Positions 25,901 to 28,900 of a stretch of DNA of 45,326 nucleotides are shown here, piece after piece (the first letter of the stretch is position 1; each line of letters begins with the position of its first letter). The stretch covers positions 1-45,326 of IMG/VR virus record IMGVR_UViG_2778261532_000009. The stretch is one strand, 5' to 3'. The stretch is from a virus (taxonomy: Duplodnaviria; Heunggongvirae; Uroviricota; Caudoviricetes). A program made the position numbers.

Positions 25901-28900
25901 GTTATACAGAGTATATGGAAGGCTTTACTGATGCTGCTACTGGTGAAGCTAAACGCGGCTTTATGACAGTAGTTTCAGAACTGGAACAACGGTTCCCTGA
26001 CCCTACCAGTATTGAAAGTGAAAAAGAGAAGAAAGACTTCGTTAAACTGTTTGGCGAATACCTGCGTGCCGAGAACATCCTGCAAAACTATGATGAATTT
26101 GCCACGCTGAAAGCCCTGCAACAAATCGATCTTAGCGATCCTGTTGCGGTAGAAAAATTCAAAGCAGAACATTATGTGGATGATGAAAAGTTCGCTGAAT
26201 TGCAAACAATTCGTCTCCCTGCTGATCGCAAGATTCAGGATTATCGTTCTGCCTATAACGATATTCGCGACTGGCAGCGCCGTGAGAAAGAAGCTGAGAA
26301 AAAAGAGAAATCAACCACTGACTGGGATGACGTGGTTTTTGAGGTTGATTTGCTGAAGTCTCAGGAAATAAACCTGGATTATATCCTTGGACTGATTTTC
26401 GAACACAACAGACAAAATAAAGGCAAGGGCGAAATGATCGAAGAGGTCAAACGCTTAATTCGTTCAAGCCTGGGGAACCGTGCTAAAGAGGGCCTGGTGG
26501 TCGATTTTATTCAGCAAACGAACCTGGATGATTTACCGGACAAAGCCAGCATCATTGACGCATTCTTTACGTTTGCTCAACGCGAACAGCAACGTGAAGC
26601 AGAAGCATTGATAAAAGAAGAAAATCTCAATGAAGATGCAGCAAAACGCTATATTCGCACGTCTTTAAAACGCGAATACGCCACCGAAAATGGCACAGAA
26701 TTAAACGAAACATTACCAAAACTTAGTCCGTTGAATCCGCAATATAAAACGAAAAAACAGGCAGTTTTCCAGAAAATCGTCTCGTTTATTGAGAAGTTTA
26801 AAGGCGTAGGCGGAAAAATATAGCCCAATTCGTGTTTTTCTTGCGGGTTCTTAATTAAACCCGCAAGAGCTCGTGGGGTTCCAAATGGCTAATATACTCC
26901 CCTTACCCATGCGCGACGATGCCGCCAAAAGTGATAGAGAACAGCCAGAAATAGATCGCGGCCATAATGATTTTGAATGCCGTGTTCATATTTTCAGCTC
27001 CTGTGATTGATTGGATACATGCCGCGCCTTGCGGCATGTTTTTATTTTCACTTTCTCTGTTTTAAAAATCAAGATTTATTAGAGCAATTATTGCTGATGG
27101 AGAAGCGCGTTTTCATACTCCCTGACCATTAACGTAAGTACGCCGTGACTCCTGAAAACACGCGCCACGTCAATCTTATCTTCCAGCGCGAACGCAATTT
27201 TACTTAGACCAATTTTCTTCAGGAGATCAATCTTTGCTGGACCGTCATTTCTGTCATCGGTGGCAGGACGCATAGATAGCAAAGGCTCAGTCCCATTTGT
27301 TACGTGCTTACGCAACCAGGCTCGTGTTTTATCCCTGGCTATCTCACAGCGCCCGGTTACAAACCAGAGGGTGTAAATGCCGGACAACTGGCGCACCATA
27401 TCAATAACTGGAGTGATGGGAGCATCAGTGTCACAGGCAAGGTTAAACTCGTTCCAGTGCTCTGTTAATGCACCTTTGCCAGGTGGTGGAAGTAAATGCA
27501 GCCTGTCTTCCGTTGCCTCTGATATCGTCCCATCAATATCTACTATGACGATGTACGGACGTTCCTGGTGTGCGTGTTTATTGAAAATACTCAAATGCCC
27601 TCCTCATTGGACGAAAAAAATGCTGGTGGGAGCACTCCACCAGCATTAAAAGTGACACTGTAACTATCAGCGAACGTAAATAGTGCCGCCGTTCTCTTTT
27701 TCCCATGCATCGCTACGTGCATAGCAAACATCGAGAAGTCTTCTTGCCGCAGTTTCCTCTAAACCCAATTCGACAACCAACTGCTCATGACGGCGGGTAA
27801 CCACATCAAACAGGGTATGCAGCCCTTTAGTTGCCAGATCATCAATGAATTCCGGTTCGAACGGCAGCTCTGCATCTGCCAACATAACCTCTTGCGCCCA
27901 CTCAACTCGACGGACCAATTCCGGGCGGCGGCTTTCCATCTCTTTACAGATCAATTCATGGAAGAACTCTACCCAACCTTCCGGCTGGAACTCGCGGAAA
28001 ATTGCCAACGGCTGGAAGTTTGGCATCAACCATTCGTTGATTCGGATATCAATGGCATAGCCCATGTCGCAGCAGAACTGATAAGCAAAGTCCAGCTTAG
28101 ACACGATATAAGGACGCTCGTTATTGAACTCTTTAGGCGATGAGATCCCATAAGCCAGGAGGCGCGGGAAGAAGGATATTTGCCCTAACGTCGGATGAAG
28201 TTTGCTTGCAGGGAAACGGCGCTCAGTAATGCCATACATTTCCTTCTTGAGCGTCGCAAATTTGGCATTCTCATTAACCAGCGCGGTAACCTCTGCTTTT
28301 TTATTAGCAAATGCCACGCGCGCTTCGCTTGCATCTTTAATAGTTTTTTTGAGCTGTTGGTTAAGGTCGGCGACCTGCTTACGCAGTTCCTGTCGCTCGC
28401 TTTTAGCTTTGTTATAGCGTTTCTCAAGGTTAAAAGGATCAAGTTTCATGATCTCTTTATATTGAGATTTTAGCGTTGAAATCTGTGAGTTCCGCAGTTC
28501 AACCATCGCGGTCATTTCATTGAGTTTTGTTTCCAGCTCAATGCTTATACGTTCGGCATTATCAGCACGCTGGTTGGCGTCATGCGTCGCATCGTCGAGC
28601 GCGTCCTGTTGCTGGCGTTTCAAATGTTCAATTTGCAGCTGAAGCTCTTCAATTTCTTTATCCTTCAGACCGAGATCCAACTGCATATTTTCAGCTGCAT
28701 CTACCAGGGAGTTATGGCTATCAGCTTCTGCGTTATAAACATCAATAAGCTGTGCGTGAAGCATCTCCGCTGACTGAACCGCATTATCAAAAAAACGCGC
28801 TGTGAGGTCATCACAACTAACGCGGCGTTGCGCGGCCCGGATGTTCTGGATAATGGCCTGGATACCGGCATTCAGGACGTCAGGGATAGATACATTTTCG

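Follow-up and report, generated by a model that had tools for sequence, protein, structure and literature searches.

The stretch of DNA analyzed here, the 45,326-nt IMG/VR virus record IMGVR_UViG_2778261532_000009 (hereafter, the window), is a P1-like phage-plasmid in which a short minus-strand locus between the pap gene and a convergent type IC hsdMSR cassette combines a C1 operator, a stem-loop leader and a 28-codon open reading frame (ORF) for a predicted membrane peptide. The segment 26899-27300 is 96.5-98.5% identical to P1, P7, SJ46, RCS47 and others as detected by megablast, and the locus region recurs across the P1 group, in 19 phage records and 868 plasmid records. The gene order on the minus strand starts with pap, the final gene of the conserved backbone before the operator (annotated as pap in the P1 record; the protein encoded in the window is 93-98% identical to those of P1, P7 and JL22), followed by the C1 operator, an A/T-rich stretch, a stem-loop, an unstructured leader with the AGGAG ribosome-binding site and, finally, the small ORF, the stop codon of which is located about 80 nt from the end of hsdR (Table 1). 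A first-pass annotation, made from the sequence alone, had placed directly after hsdR a near-consensus C1 operator with promoter-like hexamers, a hairpin leader, an intrinsic terminator on the opposite strand, a CAGGAG-type ribosome-binding site and a 28-codon hydrophobic ORF; all these elements are indeed present, with coordinates shifted by 1-2 nt.

Table 1. Coordinates of the small-ORF locus and of the adjacent genes in the window
Feature	Coordinates	Strand	Basis or remark
phd and doc	20079-20686		precede hsdM
hsdM	20857-22419		type IC hsdMSR cassette; ORF call
hsdS	22416-23585		type IC hsdMSR cassette; ORF call
hsdR, type IC	23707-26823	+	convergent with the small ORF; ORF call
Recombination junction, end of P1 homology	26899-26902	.	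26899 is the first position matched to P1, P7 and SJ46 by megablast
28-codon ORF and stop, MNTAFKIIMAAIYFWLFSITFGGIVAHG, predicted single-pass membrane peptide	26903-26989	-	ORF call and hydropathy
AGGAG ribosome-binding site	27002-26998	-	8 nt before the ATG at 26989
Unstructured leader ATCCAATCAATCACAGGAGCTGAAAAT with conserved motif CCAATCAATCAC and AGGAG	26990-27016	-	unpaired in centroid folds
9-bp stem-loop ACATGCCGC-AAGGC-GCGGCATGT	27017-27039	-	folding
Intrinsic-terminator-like site, same stem and TTTTTATTTT (27040-27049)	27017-27049	+	first terminator downstream of hsdR
P1pmgT, predicted sigma-70 promoter	TTGATT 27072-27067 / GAAAAT 27049-27044	-	mapped from the P1 annotation
P2pmgT, predicted sigma-70 promoter	TTGCTC 27087-27082 / TAAAAC 27064-27059	-	mapped from the P1 annotation
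C1 operator Op88 (OpmgT), ATTGCTCTAATAAATCT	27072-27088	-	17-bp site, one mismatch to the consensus
pap (3'-phosphatase/5'-polynucleotide kinase-like, 168 aa)	27088-27594	-	ORF; last conserved backbone gene upstream of the operator

The operator, which directly follows pap (stop codon at 27088-27090) and differs at a single position from the 17-bp asymmetric consensus ATTGCTCTAATAAATTT, is identical in sequence and position to Op88 of P1, annotated in NC_005856 as a protein_bind feature, 'monovalent C1-controlled operator OpmgT; former Op88'. With up to three mismatches allowed, the consensus matches 12 sites in the window compared to 0.25 expected by chance. The promoter-like hexamers belong to the two predicted pmgT promoters of P1, which are identical in the window to the annotated features and have their -35 hexamers inside or at the edge of the operator; the transcription starts predicted from the -10 positions are at approximately 27037-27039 for P1pmgT and 27052 for P2pmgT. 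The geometry of P1pmgT (TTGATT or TTGTTT, 17 nt, GAAAAT/AATAAT/CAGAAT) is also conserved in the distant relatives described below. As judged by these sequence matches, the operator, the promoters and the leader correspond to the already known C1-repressed Op88/OpmgT unit of phage P1, with C1 binding taken from the annotation. Relative to the leader of the P1 pmgT-pmgU-pmgV operon, the window has an identical operator in the same position after pap, and a leader, hairpin and small ORF of 97% identity; however, the P1 unit drives pmgT and the downstream genes, whereas the unit in the window faces hsdMSR, with only the 28-codon ORF left.

The peptide encoded by the small ORF reaches a mean Kyte-Doolittle hydropathy of 2.10 in its best 19-residue window. 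Hydrophobic short ORFs are not rare, with 10 of the 340 short ATG ORFs in the window reaching similar values; the joint presence of the operator, the ribosome-binding site and the hydrophobic ORF, kept in relatives, is not due to chance. In the P1 reference record, the ORF is unannotated and occupies positions 84392-84478, 9 nt before the ATG of pmgT (84488); in both P1 and SJ46, its stop codon falls within the ribosome-binding site of pmgT. A 44-aa version in the same locus and frame, 100% identical over the 28 residues, is annotated as "membrane protein" or hypothetical in SJ46 (BI168_gp098), phi456 (Orf75) and JL22, and the protein collection also contains the 28-aa call (P0008). Accordingly, the first-pass statement that this is not a named P1 gene holds for the ORF in the P1 reference record but not for the operator and the promoters, which have names, or for the other records, in which the ORF is annotated. 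The start of the 44-aa coding sequence, at an ATG within the hairpin (27037 in the window), was rejected: it has no ribosome-binding site and the extension is not conserved in the JK004-type orthologs. The 28-aa start is favored because, in the JK004 type, no ORF reaches farther upstream than the ATG adjoining the ribosome-binding site. Scans of Pfam, NCBIfam, PHROGs and PADLOC with the 28-, 44- and 53-aa forms produced nothing significant, and a word-based search together with an exhaustive phmmer search against 1.84 billion representatives found the peptide only in the P1 group, in copies of at least 91% identity.

Diverged relatives of the locus were reached via synteny with pap, namely, Cronobacter phage JK004, with a Pap protein of 71% identity (tblastn), and three metagenomic Logan contigs (L088-L090). 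All four share the order of pap, operator, promoter, hairpin, CCAATCAC[A/C]GGAGC and ORF, the ribosome-binding-site motif being present in all lineages. In JK004, pap is followed by ATTGCTCTAATAAATAT, TTGTTT-17-AATAAT, the hairpin, CCAATCAATCACCGGAGC and the ATG of a 53-aa ORF; in this phage and in the three contigs, the stop of the small ORF overlaps the ATG of the next gene (ATGA), which in the JK004 type encodes a 104-aa protein with weak, sub-threshold matches to MarR/Ren-like families. The 53-aa protein of JK004 has two database relatives, with 66-71% identity, in the same context on L088-L090. The four 53-aa ORFs (P0022-P0024) are all of the same length, with both other frames closed and a dN/dS of 0.22-0.39; differences are commonest at third codon positions, and the polar tail contains the conserved motifs TSFKPDANM and SYDCDQQ. 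The window ORF shares with them the layout of operator, promoter, hairpin and ribosome-binding site as well as an alignable N-terminal transmembrane segment; the differences are that the 53-aa ORF is 25 residues longer and that there is no T-run beside its hairpin. The alignment of the 28-aa peptide with the 53-aa orthologs is gapless over the first ~21 residues, after which similarity stops; M1, K6, A11 and W15 are invariant between the two forms, and WLFS is common to the P1 type and L088. The 28-aa form thus consists of the transmembrane portion of a 53-aa ancestor, followed by seven terminal residues of a different kind.

Among 67 P1-like loci, the ORF is intact in 66, and the sole common polymorphism is synonymous (third position of codon 26). 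In the same set, the ORF and the ribosome-binding-site region are less variable than the 3' end of pap, and the leader at 26990-27016 is the least variable segment (heterozygosity of 0.012); in the centroid folds, both the ribosome-binding site and the start codon stay free of pairing in each of the four lineages. The conservation search that the first-pass annotation had proposed thus points to a conserved coding gene, from both the syntenic 53-aa orthologs and the near-universal integrity of the ORF in the P1-like loci. Additional searches yielded little: a scan of genome contigs with Pap for diverged orthologs retrieved close relatives only; an exact scan of viral contigs for the leader motif gave two chance matches; a pattern search for the L088-type operator and motif gave no matches; a metagenome scan with the peptide alignment gave a single contig identical to JK004; tblastn of the 53-aa form against plasmids gave no match; and tblastn with the L089 Pap revealed no closer plasmid among the matches listed, with one record at 80-90% identity counted besides. 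Elsewhere in the window, a copy of the leader motif with three mismatches (CCAATCAATCAGAGGTGA, followed by AAAATG; 12039-12056, minus strand) precedes a 73-aa ORF upstream of cre, near loxP; only 0.07 matches to the motif are expected by chance, and this copy may be a shared translation-initiation motif or a coincidence.

The leader folds into a single strong structure, the hairpin (-16 to -17 kcal/mol, z = -3.1), which occupies the same place in all four lineages. Its stems bear no sequence relationship to one another and measure 9 bp (P1 type), 6 bp (JK004) or 11 bp (L088-L090). An unguided MAFFT alignment of the leaders left the stems out of register, and a hand-registered alignment was used instead; in the latter, 91.7% of the cells pair, compared to 71% in shuffles and 24-46% with the partners slid, and 8 of the 11 pairs are changed on both sides. 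Between L088 and L089, an A-U pair has become G-C, and two other changes produce G·U pairs on the sense strand only; two P1-type variants likewise yield sense-strand U·G pairs. Overall, five cells hold G·U pairs on the sense strand, whereas a single variant fits the antisense strand only. On the plus strand, the same stem (10 pairs allowing G-T, 6 of them G-C) and the adjacent tail (9 T in 10 nt) form the only terminator-like site called in 26600-27400. This T-run, complementary to the A-rich -10/start region of P1pmgT, is missing from JK004 and L088-L090 despite the presence of the hairpin, and no terminator-like site was called in JK004 or L089. Given that the T-run is missing in the relatives while the pairing is retained, the conserved object appears to be a sense-strand, promoter-proximal stem-loop. 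In the window itself, the terminator probably ends the hsdR transcript; the way the cassette is oriented would then incidentally place the 3' end of this transcript antisense to the small ORF. The 9-nt loops of the hairpins of JK004 (L087, 3533-3556; loop ACGCTATCA) and L088-L090 (loop GCACTACCA) share 6 of 9 bases despite the different stems and may be a recognition element. The only Rfam match at a permissive threshold was GcvB (26962-27045, plus strand; 20.3 bits versus a gathering score of 42, E = 0.04), which was rejected as a chance match, the score being probably driven by the terminator hairpin at the end of the matched stretch.

Downstream of the small ORF, the window departs from P1. 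The hsdMSR cassette, found in the same arrangement in phi456 and vB_EcoM-673R5, stands in place of pmgT-pmgU-pmgV-upfMNO-hot-lxr-humD, the gene set that constitutes variable region 8, one of eight stretches that are highly variable in P1-like phage-plasmids (PMC9603915). The P1 homology ends 4 nt past the stop codon of the small ORF, and across the 67 P1-like loci, heterozygosity is 0.018 within the ORF and jumps to 0.19 immediately past the stop, with at least four alternative downstream contexts following the ORF. The small ORF therefore sits on a recombination junction at the edge of variable region 8, a hot spot of such exchange. Because the convergent cassette replaced the downstream operon, the ORF is orphaned here; from the sequence, it is the sole cistron left for the Op88 promoter, which would read antisense into hsdR. 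Two clusters of junctions fall in the ORF itself (26903-26932, codons 20-28 and the stop; L060, P0007, P0009-P0013 and P0020), one at the stop codon ('...AHG*' versus '...AHGY' followed by unrelated tails) and the other at codon 20 ('FSI|NKK...'); the latter coincides with the end of the similarity to the 53-aa orthologs.

That this leader is linked to type IC hsd genes was already recorded in the P1 annotation in 2004. According to the P1 record, its intervals 84399-84482 and 84263-84482 correspond to DNA located "downstream of hsdR" in plasmid R124/3 and in the EcoDXXI hsd locus; in the window, these intervals map to 26982-26899 and 27118-26899, respectively. About 280 mostly IncF-type plasmids carry type IC hsdMSR together with only a 103-bp piece of the locus (26880-26982 in the window; 6001-6103 of LC521844.1, L091), which comprises the 3' 80% of the small ORF without the start, the hairpin or the operator and ends exactly at the R124/3 identity boundary of the P1 record. 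In L091, the one plasmid examined in this respect, a transposase gene follows the piece. The 103-bp piece is a scar of P1 origin, carried along with the hsd cassette.

The interpretation we favor, with a probability of about 0.65, is that the locus is a repressor-gated first cistron which encodes a small membrane protein behind a 5' mRNA stem-loop, within the Op88/OpmgT leader of P1. The first-pass annotation had offered a repressor-gated membrane peptide as an alternative, and this version gains support from the identity of the operator and from the coding conservation of the ORF. In the lysogen, as suggested by the layout and the P1 annotation, C1 bound at the operator would cover the -35 hexamers and keep the unit silent. 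Upon induction or infection, transcription would start at, or up to 12 nt before, the stem-loop, which is likely to act in the sense mRNA as a 5'-proximal stabilizing or structural element. The accessible, strong ribosome-binding site would then drive translation of a small, single-pass inner-membrane protein, and the terminating ribosome would be handed over to the downstream gene where one is present, across the 9-nt gap in P1 or the ATGA overlap in the JK004-type phages. Because the stop codon adjoins or overlaps the next start, translation of the small ORF probably feeds ribosomes to the next gene. Our best guess for the peptide is an early, host-directed membrane function.

Two known arrangements are comparable. 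In icd-ant of the P1 immI region, a small upstream ORF is translationally coupled to the downstream gene; immI lies outside the window, but the arrangement is alike, with a small first cistron of a C1-controlled operon whose stop is next to the following start, which makes coupling plausible. The 5'-terminal stem-loops of the ompA type stabilize E. coli mRNAs; the hairpin in the window resembles these in its stability, in its location 0-12 nt from the transcription start (a predicted one in this case), in the unstructured translation-initiation region that follows, and in its covariation.

Several observations weigh against the favored interpretation. The P1-type peptide lacks the 30-residue tail that is conserved in the 53-aa orthologs, and the coding test within the P1 group is underpowered, with about 4 synonymous versus 4 non-synonymous variable sites. 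Furthermore, amino-acid variants of the peptide (A10T, G22D, G23S, G28R, T20I, N2S and S18F; loci L004, L028-L030, L033, L034, L038, L046, L048-L052, L055 and L085) are found in 16 of the 26 loci with the hsd context versus 2 of the 55 with a pmgT-type context. This excess may reflect relaxed constraint after the loss of the downstream operon or simply a more diverse lineage, and the small ORF in the window could be a decaying relic; it is, nevertheless, intact in all 26 hsd-context loci. Only three independent lineages, aligned in a register set by hand, underlie the hairpin covariation. As for the promoters, both annotated ones are predictions and fail a stricter consensus scan of 26600-27400, and neither the P1vir RNA-seq study nor the P1 virion/knock-out study mentions the region.

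The main rival is that the small ORF is a translated leader, that is, an upstream ORF whose product has no function and whose only role is to load ribosomes on pmgT or the next gene, with a relic left in the window. The position of the stop codon, inside the ribosome-binding site of pmgT and 9 nt before its ATG in P1 and SJ46 or overlapping the next ATG in JK004 and L088-L090, fits such a leader; the absence of the conserved C-terminal tail in the P1-type peptide, the concentration of non-synonymous variants where the downstream operon is missing, and the stronger conservation of the leader and the ribosome-binding site than of the ORF between lineages all point the same way. However, the dN/dS values, the fixed length of 53 aa and the tail motifs indicate selection on the protein, the hydrophobic character along with K6, A11 and W15 is kept across lineages, and the ORF persists in every hsd-context locus, so we consider a leader without a functional peptide unlikely. 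A somewhat better case, though still a doubtful one, can be made for the hairpin being mainly a plus-strand, one-way terminator or insulator at the border of variable region 8 that stops cargo transcription, here that of hsdR, from running antisense into pap-pmgS, an explanation compatible with the ORF being real. The geometry is canonical (9-10 bp stem, 6 G-C pairs, 9 T in 10 nt), this is the first and only terminator-like site after hsdR, it is located exactly at the boundary between backbone and cargo, and the cargo can be inverted relative to the backbone, as is the case here. The difficulty is that JK004 and L088-L090 conserve the hairpin but not the T-run and that the wobble pairs favor the sense strand; moreover, in P1, the next 2.5 kb of cargo are co-directional with the backbone, leaving little antisense transcription to stop, and the IncF copies of the hsd cassette do without this terminator.

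The first-pass annotation had proposed, as a candidate, a type I toxin-like module. In such a module, the peptide would be a membrane toxin whose translation is blocked by a short plus-strand antisense RNA that covers the start codon and ends at 27017-27049. The locus does resemble hok/sok, ldr/rdl, ibs/sib, tisB/istR and zor/orz in the short, predicted single-pass hydrophobic ORF, the structured 5' leader and, in the P1 type, the strong terminator-like site on the opposite strand within the leader. Type I toxins commonly have no homologs outside their own group, and the confinement of the peptide to the P1 group in the word-based and phmmer searches fits this pattern. Beyond the short hydrophobic ORF, however, the defining features of such modules that can be read from sequence were not found. 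No plus-strand promoter-like site was detected in the scan of 26600-27400; the only -10-like hexamer seen by eye, TATACT (26893-26898), lacks a -35 and belongs to the DNA brought in by the cassette, which P1 does not have, and a borderline antisense promoter-like site of JK004 is not shared by the P1-like or L088/L089 sequences. The proposed antisense RNA over the start codon is thus left without a promoter here or a conserved one in the relatives, and its terminator is not conserved either, considering the missing T-run in JK004 and L088-L090. The ribosome-binding site is open, not sequestered, in the folds of all four lineages, the G·U pairs favor the sense strand, the overlap or adjacency with the next start in the relatives marks the ORF as the first cistron of an operon, and C1, a protein repressor, would already silence the gene in lysogens. 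Comparison with the type I families (Hok, Ldr, TisB, Ibs, ShoB, Zor and Fst; Sok, Sib, IstR and others) gave no Pfam, NCBIfam or PADLOC match at E values up to 10 and only the sub-threshold GcvB match in Rfam. On this evidence, a type I module is very improbable. Slightly less so, although still improbable, is a combined scheme in which the 28- or 53-aa peptide is a C1-silenced early protein that acts on the host inner membrane as a toxin or a host-takeover factor, the 3' end of the hsdR mRNA, extending to 27017-27049, serves as a de facto cis-antisense RNA over the start codon, and derepressed Op88 reads antisense into hsdR; if this were the case, restriction and the lytic switch would be coupled.

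Whichever role the peptide has, the operator, the promoter and the leader belong to the textbook picture of P1, and the connection to hsd had been noted before; what remains is the small gene for a predicted membrane protein. The P1 reference does not annotate this gene, the P1 group conserves it throughout, and distant relatives carry recognizable orthologs of 53 aa. Hundreds of P1-like phage-plasmids could have their annotation corrected on this basis, the type IC hsd cassettes of IncF plasmids can be recognized as bearing a P1-derived scar, and one more predicted candidate joins the untested small phage membrane proteins.

A few other features of the window are related to these subjects. 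Immediately after the hsdR stop codon, at 26840-26867, there is a 10-bp stem-loop preceded by T5; it was rejected as a terminator as no T-run follows it on either strand by eye and it was not called in the scan, and it may be a 3' stabilizer or a processing site of the hsdR mRNA. Two other short ATG ORFs are strongly hydrophobic, one at 34676 (plus strand, 59 aa), with a ribosome-binding-site-like sequence, and the other at 41418 (minus strand, 42 aa). Paired or overlapping matches to the C1 consensus are located at 42790-42817, where a perfect site overlaps an inverted site with two mismatches, at 29164-29229, the Op86a/b operator pair upstream of pmgR, and at 12302-12401; these are consistent with the known bivalent operators of P1.

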